Source: Candidatus Nanohalobium sp. (GTDB lineage: Archaea; Nanohalarchaeota; Nanosalinia; Nanosalinales; Nanosalinaceae). From it: a DNA stretch of 17,719 nucleotides. A model generated the notes under the pieces. That model saw only the letters and a program-made list of their open reading frames with translations. It was not told the DNA's origin and did not search any database. This document shows, one piece after another, positions 1-17,719 of this stretch. The position numbers were made by a program, and so were the translations under genes. Where the stretch lies: assembly GCA_042217545.1 (NCBI GenBank), contig JBDGSM010000008.1, forward strand, positions 1 to 17,719, in the 5' to 3' direction. Within the stretch, counting starts at the first letter, position 1; every line of letters starts with the position of its first letter.

Positions 1-257
1 GAGGGTTAGTGCGAGAATGAGTGTGAGGAGGCCTGTTTTGTGGATTAGGTTGTGTTTGATAACCTATCACTGTGATGGGTTGGGTGTTGAATGTTTAAGT
101 AAATTTTTTGGAGGTTTTCTGAGGCCTTTTGTGGTTTGCTGGTGTTCGAGGCCTCATACTTCTTATTGCGGGGTGAAAGCACTTAAGTTCTTTTGTCACT
201 TTTGGATAGATACTTTGGAAGGTGTTTTCTTAACTTTCGGTCACTGTTTTTTGTGTT

Positions 258-854
258 ATGCCACGTGGTAGGGGAGGTCGGATTCCGATTAATGATCGGG
301 CGGATGAGATGATTGAGTATTTTGAGTCGCGGGATTCTGTTGTTTACGGTGATCTTGTGGATGAGTTCGGTGGTTATGTTGGTTATCTTGCTGTTGAGCG
401 TGGTCCGACTTCTGAGGTTGATGAGGGTCGGGAGGTGGTGAGTGTTACTGAGGCTGATCTGGCTATTGCCTCGTTTATTGAGGAGCGTTTGAGTGAGGCG
501 GAGGATGTTGATGTTAAGAGTATGCTTGAAGGCGGTGTTTCAGGCCTTGGTGCTGTGGGTTCCGGTGGTATGCTTTTGCGGACCGGTGATCCTGGCTGGT
601 TTATAGGAAGTCTTTTGACTGGTTTTTACAGTAAGAAGAAGTTTGAGGCTGTTTACGAGGATTTGAAGGAGCGTCGTGAGTATCGGAGGGAGCGGAGTGA
701 GTCTCTTGATGAGTTCGGGGAGGATTATCCCGGTATCGATGGATACGAGCTGGAGATGGGGGATGTTGACGAGGCGGAGAGTCCTGTTTCTGTTGTGAGG
801 CCTGAGACCGGGCCTGAGGTTGCTGAGGAGCGGGCGGAGCTGGGTTTCCAGTAA
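258..854 (+). CDS. Hypothetical acidic protein with one Gly-rich hydrophobic segment
   Basis: 198-aa ORF, Glu/Asp-rich like the neighbouring proteins. Segment GGVSGLGAVGSGGMLLRTGDPGWFIGSLLTGF. No family recognised. Confidence 0.7.
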   Translation: MPRGRGGRIPINDRADEMIEYFESRDSVVYGDLVDEFGGYVGYLAVERGPTSEVDEGREVVSVTEADLAIASFIEERLSEAEDVDVKSMLEGGVSGLGAVGSGGMLLRTGDPGWFIGSLLTGFYSKKKFEAVYEDLKERREYRRERSESLDEFGEDYPGIDGYELEMGDVDEAESPVSVVRPETGPEVAEERAELGFQ

Positions 855-857
855 GGC

Positions 858-1721
858 CTATAGGTATATGAGGAGTGCTCCTATCGCCATTAGTGCTGCT
901 CCTGTTATTCTTTCCTTGAAGCTTGCTTTTTCGTCGAGCATGTAGTAGCTGAAGATGACTGTGATGGGTATGCTGAGTCTTTTGATCGAGACGACGTAAG
1001 GTACGAGTGTAAGTTTTAATGCGGTCATCTGGAGGATTATGCCTGCGCCGCCGAGGCCTCCGAGAAGCATCAGTGGTTTCCAGTCGTTCCTGATTTTTCG
1101 CTGCCATCCCGAGGATTTTTTCATCATTACAGGGAGCATGAAGAGTGAGGAAAGTGTGTATACTGTTAGGGGCCACATGACGGGGCTTGACATCTGGACT
1201 CCGATCTTGTCGGTGTTGGCTGTGACCGCGTAGATCAGGATCACCGCCAGTATGATCTGGACTCCTCTCTCGTCCCAGAGTTTTTTCAACGGGTCCAGGA
1301 GGCCTTGAGATCCTTCTGCTTTAAGCATGTAGGCGCCTGAGGCGATGAGAAGTATGCCGAGACCTCCGAGAATGCCCGGTGCTTCTCCAAGGATTAGAAA
1401 GCTTGTGAACAGGACGAGAAGCGGGGATATGGCGAACATGGGTGTTACTATGGATGCATCACTTTTTTTGTAGGCCTTTGCGATTAGGATGGATGTGAAG
1501 GCGATGACAGCGCTCTGCGGTACTGCGAGCAGCAGGAAGCCCGGCGATAGCTCTGGTAGGCCTGTGTAGAGTATCGCTGCAAGTAGTACGGGTATGCCGA
1601 AGATGCGTGAGCTGAAAGCTGTGACGAACTCGTCAGTGTCAAGCGCGTTCTTTCTCTGGTAGATGCTCTGGAATCCTTTGATAGCTGCGACCATTGCTGC
1701 GAGCAGGATTCCGAGCTCCAT
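858..1721 (-). CDS. EamA/DMT family transporter
   Basis: 287 aa, about 10 hydrophobic helices in two repeats. Motifs AYKKSDASIVTPMFAISP..ILGE and YVVSIKRLSIP..YMLDEK..ERITGAALM. Confidence 0.9.
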   Translation of the reverse strand: MELGILLAAMVAAIKGFQSIYQRKNALDTDEFVTAFSSRIFGIPVLLAAILYTGLPELSPGFLLLAVPQSAVIAFTSILIAKAYKKSDASIVTPMFAISPLLVLFTSFLILGEAPGILGGLGILLIASGAYMLKAEGSQGLLDPLKKLWDERGVQIILAVILIYAVTANTDKIGVQMSSPVMWPLTVYTLSSLFMLPVMMKKSSGWQRKIRNDWKPLMLLGGLGGAGIILQMTALKLTLVPYVVSIKRLSIPITVIFSYYMLDEKASFKERITGAALMAIGALLIYL

Positions 1722-1747
1722 GCGTACCTGTGAGGTCTAACTGTTTT

Positions 1748-3175
1748 TCAGTCTTCCTCTAAGGCCTCGAACTTTTCGATCGCTTCCTTCCTTTTCTCAT
1801 CGTGATCCACGATAGGCCTTGGGTAGTCCTCTCCGATCTCCACGCCGCAGCTCTCCTGCTGTTGTTTATTCATCTTCCACGGCTCGTGGATATGTTCGTC
1901 TGGTACGTCTCGGAGTTCCGGCACCCATTTTCGTATGTATTTTCCTTCCGGATCGTAGTCTTCTCCCTGGCTTGTCGGGTTGAATACGCGGAAGTAGGGT
2001 TGCGCGTCGGTCCCGATACTGTAGCTCCACTGGATTCCGCCGACCATGGCGGAGATCTCGGCGTCGACGAACATCTTCGAGAAGTAGTCGTGGACGTCTC
2101 TCCAGTCCAGCCACAGATCTTTGCATGAGAAGTTTGTGACTACCATCCTGAGGCGGTTGTGCATGAATCCTGTCTTTTTCAGCTGTCTCATTCCTGCGTC
2201 GACAAAGGGATAACCTGTCTTTCCTTCGACCCAGGCCTCCCATTTCTCCGGAGCCTCTTCCTTCGAGTCCCAGTCCGGTTCGTTGTCCCTGTACTTCTCC
2301 ATGAACGGCTCCTCGACTTCATGCGGATAGTTCCAGAGGATCTGGAAATAATAGTCACGCCAGGCAAGTTCCTCCTGCCAGGTCTCGATGCCGGATGTGT
2401 CGGAGTTAGGATTCCTGGCCTTGACTCTTTCAGAGGCCCAGAAAACCTCGCGGATGGAAACAGTGCCGAACTTGAGGTGGGGTGAAAGCCTGGATGTGCC
2501 GTCTTTCCACGCATAATCCCGGTTCTGGTCGTAGTTCCAGATCTTCTCCTTGAACTCCTCAATTCTTTCCTTTCCTCCCTCTCTGCCAGGGTTCCAGACC
2601 CATTCAAAATCTTCAGGCCTTTCAAAACCGAGCTCTTCAAGCGAAGGGATCTCATCGCTCCCGGGGTCAGGAGTTTTATACTTCTCAGCATCTTGAGTTC
2701 TTCTCTTCTCGTTCTGGAACCATTTTTTCCTGTAGTAGCTGTAAACTTTGTAAGGGTCTCCGGAGTTGGTTAAGATCTCTTCTTTCTCGAACATGACCAG
2801 ATCTTTGAAGGTTTTGACGGGAAGTTCGAGACCTTCCTCAATTTTCTGGTCTCTTTCACGGGAATAGGGCGTGTAGTCCCTGTTGTGGTATACTGCGTCC
2901 GCATCTGTTTCTTTAACTATCTTTTTGAGCTGTTCCAGCGGTTTTCCCTTCCGGATAACAAGTCTTTTTCCTTCTCTCTCCTCAAGGTCTTCCTTGAACT
3001 TCTGAAGGCTTTCTCTCCAGAATTTCACTCGTGGATAGCCCAGTTCTGCGTTTGAGAAGTATTCGTCGTCGATTACGTAGAAAGGTATGACTTCTTCATG
3101 GTTTTCCGAGGCCTTCACTATTGCTGCGTTGTCGTGTTCCCGCATTGATCTGCGGATCCAGGCTATCGCTGTCAC
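1748..3175 (-). CDS. phr: Deoxyribodipyrimidine photolyase / cryptochrome family protein (class I CPD-like)
   Basis: N-terminal WIRRSMREHDNAA; TSRLSPHLKFGTVSIR, ELAWRDYY, GKTGYPFVDAGMRQL, MHNRLRM and DAQPYFRVFNP motifs. GTG start. Confidence 0.93.
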   Translation of the reverse strand: MTAIAWIRRSMREHDNAAIVKASENHEEVIPFYVIDDEYFSNAELGYPRVKFWRESLQKFKEDLEEREGKRLVIRKGKPLEQLKKIVKETDADAVYHNRDYTPYSRERDQKIEEGLELPVKTFKDLVMFEKEEILTNSGDPYKVYSYYRKKWFQNEKRRTQDAEKYKTPDPGSDEIPSLEELGFERPEDFEWVWNPGREGGKERIEEFKEKIWNYDQNRDYAWKDGTSRLSPHLKFGTVSIREVFWASERVKARNPNSDTSGIETWQEELAWRDYYFQILWNYPHEVEEPFMEKYRDNEPDWDSKEEAPEKWEAWVEGKTGYPFVDAGMRQLKKTGFMHNRLRMVVTNFSCKDLWLDWRDVHDYFSKMFVDAEISAMVGGIQWSYSIGTDAQPYFRVFNPTSQGEDYDPEGKYIRKWVPELRDVPDEHIHEPWKMNKQQQESCGVEIGEDYPRPIVDHDEKRKEAIEKFEALEED

Positions 3176-3213
3176 ATGTAGAAATAGTGATGAAGGAATA
3201 AAATTTGAAGGCC

Positions 3214-17116: not shown

Positions 17117-17154
17117 AGGCCTTCTCTTAAATCTCTTCACGAGGTGAAGACATT

Positions 17155-17304
17155 ATGGGAAAGCATGAAGTAGTCCAGCTACACGAGAAATACAACGAAG
17201 ACGGAAGCTACGAAGGAGAGAAATGCCCGAGATGCGGATCTTTCCTTGCAGAACACGACGACCGCAAAAGCTGCGGCAAATGCGGCTACACAAAACACCA
17301 GTAA
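17155..17304 (+). CDS. rps27ae: 30S ribosomal protein S27ae (eS31), not in the ORF track
   Basis: Manual translation [53 protein letters not shown]...CGKCGY zinc ribbon. GAGGTGA SD upstream. Confidence 0.95.
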
Positions 17305-17306
17305 AA

Positions 17307-17358
17307 AGGCCTTCCTGAAGGCCTCTGGCACATATACTTACTTTTCCTTTTCCCTTCA
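17307..17358 (+). terminator. Putative terminator after rps27ae
   Basis: AGGCCTTC-CT-GAAGGCCT inverted repeat followed by a pyrimidine tract (CTTTTCCTTTTCCCTTC). Confidence 0.45.
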
Positions 17359-17405
17359 ACCTCTATTCTGACAATTATTTAACTCTCGCACGGGAACCTT
17401 CCTGC

Positions 17406-17719
17406 ATGCAGAGAATTTTCTTCGCCACCGGCAACAAGGGAAAAATCGAGCACGCTTCCAACGTCCTCGGCGACGAATTCAAGGTAAAACAGGTAGATGT
17501 AGAAACTGTCGAGCCAAGTATCGATTCCATAGAGGAAATTGCTGAGGCGAAGGTGGAACAGGCGAGGGAGAAAGCGGATATTCCTGAGGAAGGCCTTCTG
17601 ATCGCGGACGATTCAGGCCTTTTCGTGGATTCGTTGAACGGTTTTCCAGGAGCTCAGACAAGTTTCTTCGACAGGAAAGTCGGAAAGAACAATTTATTGA
17701 AGCTAATTGAGGACGATAA
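17406..17719 (+). CDS. rdgB: Non-canonical purine NTP pyrophosphatase (RdgB/HAM1), truncated by the window end
   Basis: Manual translation MQRIFFATGNKGKIE...ADDSGLFVDSLNGFPG... with no stop before the window end. Confidence 0.92.
   Translation, partial: MQRIFFATGNKGKIEHASNVLGDEFKVKQVDVETVEPSIDSIEEIAEAKVEQAREKADIPEEGLLIADDSGLFVDSLNGFPGAQTSFFDRKVGKNNLLKLIEDD

Follow-up and report, generated by a model that had tools for sequence, protein, structure and literature searches.

The 17,719-nucleotide (nt) stretch analyzed here (the window) corresponds to contig C78 of the source genome G000, a Candidatus Nanohalobium species placed in genus g1. Its genes are archaeal, encoding ribosomal proteins S6e and S24e, eIF2-gamma, and an Rpo7-like subunit, and the genome carries an archaeal 16S rRNA gene. 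The closest named matches of the window's eIF2-gamma are Nanohaloarchaea, with 90% identity to locus L016 (Nanohaloarchaea archaeon SG9). The subject of this study is the palindromic hexamer AGGCCT, which forms a dispersed array without strand across positions 29 to 17620, comprising exactly 78 sites from the first at 29 to 34 to the last at 17615 to 17620, or one per 227 bp. The sites start at positions 29, 122, 149, 542, 798, 854, 1054, 1300, 1472, 1558, 1762, 1814, 2233, 2615, 3109, 3209, 3221, 3287, 3540, 3698, 3913, 3982, 4024, 4334, 4463, 4897, 5188, 5368, 5703, 5809, 5902, 6249, 6499, 6793, 6940, 7579, 8281, 8411, 8455, 8570, 8649, 9082, 9101, 9368, 10731, 11262, 11337, 11382, 11606, 11656, 12031, 12314, 12694, 12910, 13031, 13100, 13381, 13865, 13921, 14138, 14221, 14310, 14383, 14527, 14606, 14796, 14897, 15133, 15279, 15862, 15996, 16276, 16866, 17117, 17307, 17319, 17591, and 17615. 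According to our gene calls, 13 of them read AGG-CCT in frame, 20 read xAG-GCC-Txx, 32 read xxA-GGC-CTx, 12 are intergenic, and 1 spans a gene end. The original prediction, which was made from the letters of the window, had put the array at about 78 sites against about 4 expected, and both figures stand: 200 dinucleotide-preserving shuffles of the window yielded 4.28 ± 2.33 sites (maximum, 12), and none of the 200 reached 78.

The enrichment extends over the whole genome. The G000 assembly (1,032,751 bases in 82 contigs, rated 92% complete) holds 3,699 copies of AGGCCT, one per 279 bp or about 3.6 per kilobase (kb), where base composition predicts 245, an excess of 15.1-fold that makes AGGCCT the most numerous of all 4,096 hexamers. 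The excess is 13.0-fold over a Markov model of order 1, 5.1-fold over order 2, 2.4-fold over order 3, and 1.11-fold over order 4, the last of which is circular because AGGCC and GGCCT occur almost solely within AGGCCT. The tetramer GGCC is found at 6,377 sites, 3,699 of them (58%) inside AGGCCT, and all other NGGCCN words are depleted. These include the three palindromes that the original prediction had named for comparison, TGGCCA (106 copies, 0.43-fold), CGGCCG (72 copies, 0.31-fold), and GGGCCC (39 copies, 0.17-fold).

The sites are evenly scattered. AGGCCT is present on all contigs at 1.3 to 5.9 per kb (median, 3.6), and only 2 of 472 windows of 2 kb contain no copy or a single one (mean, 7.17; variance, 6.85). 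Gaps between neighboring copies reach 2,465 bp at most, where exponential scatter would give about 2,290 bp, and no AGGCCT-free islands beyond chance were found across G000. In the window, the longest AGGCCT-free stretch (9374 to 10730, no strand, 1,357 bp) covers the whole of gene g0241 (9532 to 10335, forward strand), which has no copy in 804 nt (Poisson P = 0.06), and the gap lies within the expectation of random scatter. The flanks of the hexamer are uninformative within the genome, with Markov ratios of about 1 for the 8-mers, and the unit is therefore the bare hexamer rather than a longer repeat.

The excess is not a matter of codon choice. Our gene calls (1,100 genes, 88% of G000) contain 3,128 coding copies of AGGCCT, divided among AGG-CCT (545), xAG-GCC-Txx (1,032), and xxA-GGC-CTx (1,551). 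Synonymous-codon shuffles within genes, which keep the protein and its codon set, gave 595 ± 22 copies (n = 30; 129, 197, and 268 by frame), and shuffles of codon order gave 296 ± 17 (n = 30). In the window alone, the 65 coding sites compare with 11.1 ± 2.9 (maximum, 19) in 500 synonymous-codon shuffles. Spacers, at 4.36 sites per kb, exceed genes, at 3.44 per kb. The view that amino acid usage was an unlikely cause is thus upheld, and the enrichment survives the codon-shuffled controls that had been suggested for it. Gene class is irrelevant as well, with 3.3 sites per kb in genes common to genomes G003 and G011 (introduced below) and 3.5 per kb in genes matching neither.

The bias is strong and acts on all six bases. 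R-P dipeptides are spelled AGGCCT in 545 of 726 cases, where independent codon choice predicts 13%, and the hexamer is carried by 61% of [KEQ]-A-[FLSYCW] and 72% of x-G-L tripeptides. Alanine in the context AG-GCN-T is encoded by GCC in 92% of cases (GCA, 3%; GCG, 2%; GCT, 3%) versus 24% elsewhere, and glycine in the context A-GGN-CT is encoded by GGC in 88% versus 28% elsewhere. To test each position, we took places that match five bases of AGGCCT and whose remaining base is a silent third position of a codon. There, the base that completes the hexamer is chosen in 90, 95, 94, 88, 92, and 89% of cases (positions 1 to 6), against 36, 58, 46, 28, 24, and 35% for these codon boxes outside such contexts. 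The log odds ratio per completing base is 2.6 to 3.6, about equal at the six positions. At each position the wrong bases are equally rare, transitions and transversions being suppressed alike, and repair from T:G to C:G only therefore cannot be the cause. Altogether, 3,128 of 3,765 opportunities (83%) that lie within one silent step are filled. Occupancy falls to 54 to 75% where another AGGCCT lies within 50 bp and is 85 to 86% at distances of 50 to 400 bp. The bias also reaches the proteins: compared with their orthologues in G011, the three classes of motif-permissive peptides are 1.58-, 1.82-, and 1.45-fold as frequent in G000, and their reversed-order controls are 1.04-, 1.15-, and 0.97-fold as frequent.

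The abundance of the hexamer is patchy among relatives. Counts in 70 genomes of the class single out 12 as rich in AGGCCT (1,481 to 4,489 sites): G000 to G002 (genus g1), G033 to G036 (g26), G048 to G050 (g29), and G003 and G052 (g2). A further member of g26, G032, holds 762 sites and takes an intermediate place. The rich genomes represent 4 of 32 genera, all of family f1; the 37 other genomes of this family have 55 to 892 sites, and 20 genomes of four other families have 32 to 500. Genus g2 is itself split, with G003 and G052 being rich and G051, G053, G054, and G055 being poor. Shorter loci give the same picture, with 3.3 to 4.5 sites per kb in L016, L018 (a Nanohalobium metagenome-assembled genome), L032 (Nanosalina sp. 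VS9-1), and L033, 1.7 to 1.8 per kb in L034 and L035, and at most 0.63 per kb in every other locus. In four genera of a single nanohaloarchaeal family, the bias is in force or has been so in the recent past, and it is missing in close relatives. A scan of viral contigs for three AGGCCT within 90 bp returned at least 122 stretches; among the matches listed of at least 4 kb, the best carries 2.7 sites per kb, clustered in 5 of its 500-bp bins, and none is both dense and evenly spread.

The rich state appears to have arisen more than once. In an eIF2-gamma tree (one marker, quick search), it needs at least three changes, and the well-supported branches force at least two. The ratio of forward to reversed permissive peptides is 1.13 ± 0.12 in the poor sister clade of rich g2, 1.15 ± 0.06 in other poor genomes, and 1.79 ± 0.16 in the rich loci; that the poor sister clade of the rich g2 genomes keeps no leftover peptide excess favors independent gains over a single gain with later loss. 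The rich genomes differ in context. The base preceding AGGCCT is A in 41 to 45% of cases in genus g1 (G000 and G001) and G in 39% in G003, with T being rare (10%) in all three, and the commonest 8-mers are AAGGCCTT in g1 (G000 and G001) and GAGGCCTC in G003. The sole enriched one-mismatch neighbor of the hexamer is AGGCCC/GGGCCT, at 1.9- to 3.7-fold in rich versus 0.5- to 0.7-fold in poor genomes; other deviants at the outer positions are not enriched, and the T-containing one-base neighbors are not depleted.

Individual sites are retained between rich genomes. Conservation was measured at amino-acid-conserved contexts in G001, which belongs to the same genus as G000 and has a four-fold-site identity of 0.45 with it, in G003 of another genus, and in the poor genome G011. 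Sites of G000 are also AGGCCT in 87 to 93% of cases in G001, where other hexamers are identical in 35%, and in 80 to 89% of cases in G003, where other hexamers are identical in 28%. In G011, by comparison, only 5 to 10% of the sites are shared against 22% for other hexamers. Permissive places that lack AGGCCT in G000 carry it in 38 to 60% of cases in G001 and 40 to 79% in G003, and part of the sharing may therefore be convergent filling rather than inheritance. Collectively, the claim that the window holds a palindrome like HIP1, the highly iterated palindrome (HIP) of cyanobacteria, is borne out: the hexamer is hyperabundant whatever the reading frame, the strand, or the type of gene (core or accessory), it is so in spacers too, and orthologues retain it. 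It had also been noted that no such motif was known for the lineage. We found no publication on AGGCCT in nanohaloarchaea in a search that mostly did not extend to subscription journals.

These results leave little doubt that a force acting at the DNA level favors the exact hexamer and that AGGCCT is a lineage-specific highly iterated palindrome; codons and peptides are not its target, and it is strong, symmetric over six bases, and able to alter proteins at R-P, [KEQ]-A-[FLSYCW], and x-G-L. Like HIP1 (GCGATCGC) and the alternate cyanobacterial HIPs, AGGCCT is a short, GC-rich, exact palindrome that is over-represented at least 15-fold, occurs in all gene frames and in spacers, is conserved between orthologues beyond the background, is switched on or off between related genomes, and has an unsettled cause. 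Elhai (2015; PMC4390886) puts HIP1 density at about 1 per kb and reports a cognate methyltransferase wherever a HIP is frequent, with one-base deviants biased to the first and last positions; Xu et al. (2018; PMC5861425) describe quasi-periodic spacing of HIP1, with periods of 10 to 90 kb, and conservation in orthologues above background. The archaeal word differs in being a hexamer rather than an octamer, in being 3 to 4 times denser (about 3.6 per kb), and in having six equally driven positions, and no long-range periodicity was credibly detected in it. AGGCCT thus works as a cyanobacterial HIP does in its excess, its frame independence, and its conservation, and departs from the HIPs in its noncyanobacterial lineage and in that no cognate methyltransferase was found.

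A force of this kind would require a factor able to recognize the full symmetric hexamer, which would most likely be a homodimeric, sequence-specific DNA-binding or DNA-processing protein present only in the rich lineages and gained more than once. The original prediction had offered three readings, a methylation-associated, a chromosome-organizing, and a recombination or uptake motif, and the searches gave the first of them no support. Profile searches on six-frame translations found no match to PF00145 (C5 methyltransferase) in G000 to G003, and the family is present in six other members of f1. PF01555 and PF02384 gave weak matches to an open reading frame (ORF) of about 300 residues with a DLPY motif that is found in most relatives, rich and poor, and that looks like a THUMP-type RNA methylase. 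Strong matches to PF02384 occur in only two of five rich genomes (G003 and G048), and PF02086 has no match in the rich genomes searched, so that none of these four DNA methyltransferase families is common to the rich genomes. The motif [DNS]PP[YFWH] occurs 10 times in the predicted proteins of G000; the seven longest of these proteins were read by eye and comprise five surface proteins and two small HemK- or RNA-methylase-like proteins. Judged in this way, neither these seven nor the THUMP-type ORF would be a DNA methylase. A search for the HaeIII-type endonuclease family gave no match, but gave none in control genomes either.

A phyletic screen was made with tblastn against the whole of G003 (rich) and of G011 (poor) and against parts of G001 and G015 (40% of the latter). 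It returned 105 genes of G000 that are present in G003 and missing in G011, and 82 after removal of those with matches in the G015 part. Eleven of these were tested across relatives. The SWIM protein g0985 occurs in poor genomes and is missing from g29, the Mre11/SbcD-like g0287 tracks the trait within g2 but is missing in rich g26 and present in poor G040, the S-adenosylmethionine-dependent methylases g0560 and g0244 are present in poor g2 genomes, and the YgjP-like g0621 is missing in rich G035. The distribution of three unnamed proteins (g0449, g0702, and g0697) and three helix-turn-helix proteins (g0794, g0998, and g0967) does not fit the trait. The nearest miss is an SbcCD-like nuclease/ATPase pair, which was detected in G000, G001, G003, and G052 but in none of the four poor members of g2; no shared island surrounds it in G003. 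The universal genes with unusually high identity between G000 and G003 are metabolic enzymes.

In G000, the SbcCD-like ATPase/phosphoesterase pair and the gene of the YgjP-like metallopeptidase lie at C12:131-3116 and C4:1793-2491. The YgjP-like gene was also found in G003 (by tblastn) and in G048, and neither it nor the SbcD-like gene turned up in those poor members of the G003 genus that were searched. In G048, a type I-like methylase match has homologues of both no more than 15 kb away, and the region looks like a defense island.

Our preferred mechanism, which we hold only as a possibility, is that AGGCCT labels DNA as the cell's own or that of its kin when DNA is exchanged, recombined, or protected. 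Alleles carrying the hexamer would be fixed preferentially during these processes, and the mark would be neither a methylation site nor a restriction site. We prefer this reading because the symmetry of the whole word, its saturation, its indifference to gene class, its on/off pattern, and the role newly proposed for HIP1 all fit it, and the diminishing return beside an existing copy also speaks in its favor. The mechanism would resemble the drive of bacterial uptake sequences as well as that HIP1 role: Rodriguez-Cruz et al. (2026; PMC13756078) report that transformation is more efficient with HIP1 and propose that it is a watermark or an uptake sequence. In a bolder form, which we consider unlikely as a whole, a transferable gene for a hexamer-specific DNA-recognizing protein would have entered nanohaloarchaea at least two to three separate times, and biased fixation in exchange or repair would have rewritten about 2% of the genome (about 3,700 × 6 bp in 1 Mb), proteins included. 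If true, such a kin-DNA watermark would be the first archaeal system resembling an uptake or recombination signal, and one without methylation.

The DNA uptake sequences (DUS) of Neisseria and the uptake signal sequences (USS) of Pasteurellaceae are likewise genome-wide and group specific, occur in all frames, and shape peptides; they are generally held to accumulate by a fixation bias arising from uptake and recombination, each copy having no function of its own to account for this, and they depend on known competence machinery. AGGCCT shares with them the lineage-specific spread of a word through all frames and into peptides, and differs in its symmetry (an exact 6-bp palindrome), its uninformative flanks, and its density of 3.6 per kb. 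Chi sites, which serve RecBCD or AddAB, are another class of short over-represented words that mark a cell's own DNA; they are asymmetric, oriented with replication, and of far lower density, unlike the symmetric and far denser AGGCCT, and the SbcCD-like pair tracks the trait only inside g2. We know of no archaeal Chi.

Several points weigh against a mark of kin DNA. Known uptake sequences are 9 to 12 nt long, nonpalindromic, and present at about 1 per kb, and a hexamer discriminates poorly. With models that would not cover an archaeal uptake machinery, ComEC (PF03772) was found in none of the 50 genomes of family f1 and DprA (PF02481) in one of the 50, a poor one. Of the 82 candidate genes, 11 were tested and not one fits the trait, and no natural DNA uptake or exchange in nanohaloarchaea is documented in the literature that we found. 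The gene calls behind all codon-based tests are simple ones of our own, and the drop in occupancy at short range can equally reflect the cost of hairpins. Furthermore, Xu et al. (PMC5861425) take high conservation of HIP1 sites as evidence for a selected function and not for neutral drive.

The alternative that survives best, although we find it doubtful, is that AGGCCT is weakly selected site by site as the binding site of an abundant dimeric nucleoid or chromosome-organizing protein, its density reflecting coverage of the whole chromosome. This agrees with an exact, symmetric, 6-bp word whose one-mismatch neighbors are unenriched except AGGCCC/GGGCCT, with its even scatter and lack of deserts beyond chance, and with the lower occupancy beside an existing AGGCCT. 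The per-site log odds ratio of about 3 also lies within the range that weak selection reaches in large populations, as a comparison with codon bias indicates. Xu et al. (2018; PMC5861425) give a chromosome-organizing, nucleoid-binding reading of HIP1, and their argument from site conservation applies here too, the conservation being far above background. Their key argument, long-range periodicity, finds no credible counterpart in our data. The periodogram of the complete genome G003 has a peak at 52 kb (P = 0.046 against bin permutation), but the test, when applied to the poor genome G011, yields P = 0.000 and is untrustworthy for that reason; G000 is too fragmented for a periodogram. In addition, no tested candidate tracks the trait, three helix-turn-helix proteins having been rejected, some 3,700 separately selected sites together with amino acid changes would be a heavy load for a 1-Mb symbiont, and close relatives manage without AGGCCT.

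A second alternative, the model that Elhai put forward for HIP, is a ratchet of biased repair linked to methylation, in which an AGGCCT or GGCC methyltransferase of an unrecognized family and a methyl-directed mismatch nuclease would turn near-sites into sites without any function of the word. Such a ratchet would account for the near-saturation, the on/off pattern (restriction-modification [R-M] genes being mobile), and the lack of preference for a gene class; the enriched neighbor AGGCCC/GGGCCT, which differs at an outer base, recalls Elhai's bias to outer positions. A mismatch endonuclease is also at hand, since NucS/EndoMS (PF01939) occurs in 46 of the 50 family genomes, and was not found in G000 (92% complete), G002, G009, and G010. 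It is, however, spread over rich and poor genomes alike. The rich genomes share no methyltransferase among the four families searched, and the motif-IV proteins read by eye do not appear to be DNA methylases. We therefore judge this ratchet improbable.

Known repair and restriction systems differ from AGGCCT in similar ways. In Escherichia coli, very short patch (VSP) repair by Dcm and Vsr enriches CCWGG and depletes CTAG through T:G-to-C:G correction only, with modest excesses. G000 resembles this case in its genome-wide oligonucleotide skew and in CTAG being its most depleted tetramer (0.24-fold). It differs in that every wrong base is suppressed equally, which excludes a T:G-only repair as the engine of the ratchet, in that the force on the A and T positions is no weaker than on the others, and in that Vsr was found in none of the 50 family genomes and PF00145 in none of G000 to G003. 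The targets of type II R-M systems are exact 6-bp palindromes typical of homodimeric enzymes and are normally avoided. AGGCCT, which is the StuI site, is like such a target in form; it is enriched in the rich genomes and avoided in G017 and G018.

A role at the level of RNA, for which we see very little chance, would rest on the palindrome placing AGGCCU in the transcripts of either strand, where copies might pair with each other or be bound by an RNA-binding protein or nuclease, for instance in 3′-end formation. The hexamer does accumulate at gene ends: over 1,029 ends in G000, it starts at positions -5, +2, and +3 relative to the stop codon 32, 38, and 28 times, compared with about 4 to 5 per position elsewhere, and its density over the first 10 bases, counted from the stop codon, is raised about threefold (in the window, for example, at 854 to 859, 3209 to 3214, and 17117 to 17122). 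The peaks at -5 and +2 are, however, what simple filling predicts, because the T (-5) or the A (+2) of the stop codon completes the word; the further peak at +3 lies directly 3′ of the stop codon. Pairs spaced by 12 bp are over-represented, with 17 in the genome compared with 12 at a spacing of 13 and mostly 3 to 7 at other spacings of 8 to 20 bp, and two of them lie in spacers of the window. The first (3209 to 3226, no strand; starts at 3209 and 3221) is at the end of the reverse-strand gene 3217 to 3825 and upstream of the reverse-strand photolyase gene 1751 to 3175; as a single strand it could form a hairpin with a 6-bp stem and a 6-nt loop, as read from the letters without folding. The second (17307 to 17324, no strand; starts at 17307 and 17319) is in the spacer between the S24e gene (16670 to 17113, forward) and a Ham1-like gene (from 17406, forward). 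Yet nearby pairs are avoided overall, not favored, the density is alike across frames and gene classes, and the 16S rRNA gene of G000 has no AGGCCT in the 1,180 nt examined.

An origin as a by-product of codon, dicodon, or amino acid usage in an acidic halophile proteome, or as a dispersed repeat or mobile element, is refuted by the shuffles, the codon-box usage, the per-position test, and the counts in relatives, for although the order-4 Markov expectation nearly matches the count and GAAG-type words are also frequent in G000 (up to 5.4-fold), that model is built from pentamers almost exclusive to the motif, synonymous shuffles recover 595 rather than 3,128 copies, spacers exceed genes in density, relatives with similarly acidic proteomes have only 55 to 892 sites, and the lack of a conserved flank rules out a repeat element.

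Until now, hyperabundant palindromes were a puzzle of cyanobacteria that the literature linked to methyltransferases; the phenomenon is here found in another domain. The archaeal case is denser, at one copy per 279 bp, changes proteins, has no recognizable methyltransferase, and is switched on and off inside one genus. With 12 to 13 rich genomes against 57 poor ones, and 2 rich and 4 poor genomes within g2, the causal factor should be findable by comparative genomics. A member of the rich genus Nanohalobium is reported to be in co-culture, which makes tests of binding, methylation, and DNA transfer feasible. AGGCCT is also a sharp compositional marker for genome binning and for spotting recently acquired DNA. 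At G003:C1:689486-691976, three neighboring ORFs (223, 76, and 473 amino acids) have no AGGCCT in about 2.5 kb, compared with the G003 average of 3.9 per kb, and have no G000 homologue. This is probably recently acquired DNA, and it suggests that the word can be used to date foreign DNA.

Other word biases were noted in the same genomes. Hexamers containing CTAG have observed/expected (O/E) ratios of about 0.2 to 0.3 in the rich genomes G000, G001 (part), and G003 versus 0.6 to 0.8 in the poor genomes G011 and G015 (part), and are thus 2 to 3 times more depleted in the rich ones; CTAG depletion may be a second lineage-linked word bias that travels with AGGCCT. No alternate hyperabundant palindrome above 4.6-fold was seen in the whole genomes and loci of poor relatives that were tabulated, save ATCGAT. 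This word reaches 9.3-fold (46 copies) in L059 (21 kb, Nanohalarchaeota archaeon QJJ-5) and 6.9-fold in L066, both of a different nanohaloarchaeal family; the excess sits within TCGATG/CATCGA words and may be codon driven. The avoidance of AGGCCT in G017 and G018 amounts to 73 and 55 copies in whole genomes versus 491 and 362 for the backwards control word, and G017 has a strong C5 methyltransferase match (300 bits). Possibly, AGGCCT or GGCC is the target of an R-M system in some nanohaloarchaea, and the word is hoarded by others. In G015:C1:1-380000 (L217 to L235), GTGCAC, GGGCCC, and GAGCAC-type words, which fit GDGCHC, are nearly missing (O/E, 0.01 to 0.1), and G015 has two C5 methyltransferase matches. 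GDGCHC is reported to be fully methylated in a cultivated nanohaloarchaeon, a different organism and motif (PMC10266531 and PMC11001535).

The window also holds four paralogues of the RimK/ATP-grasp ligase family, at 10342 to 11226 (forward) and at 11223 to 12152, 12149 to 13090, and 13098 to 14069 (all reverse), which adjoin a MATCAP-like gene of the tubulin tyrosine carboxypeptidase family at 14106 to 15323 (forward). Together, these five genes look like a module that adds amino acids to, and trims them from, the C terminus of a protein or peptide.

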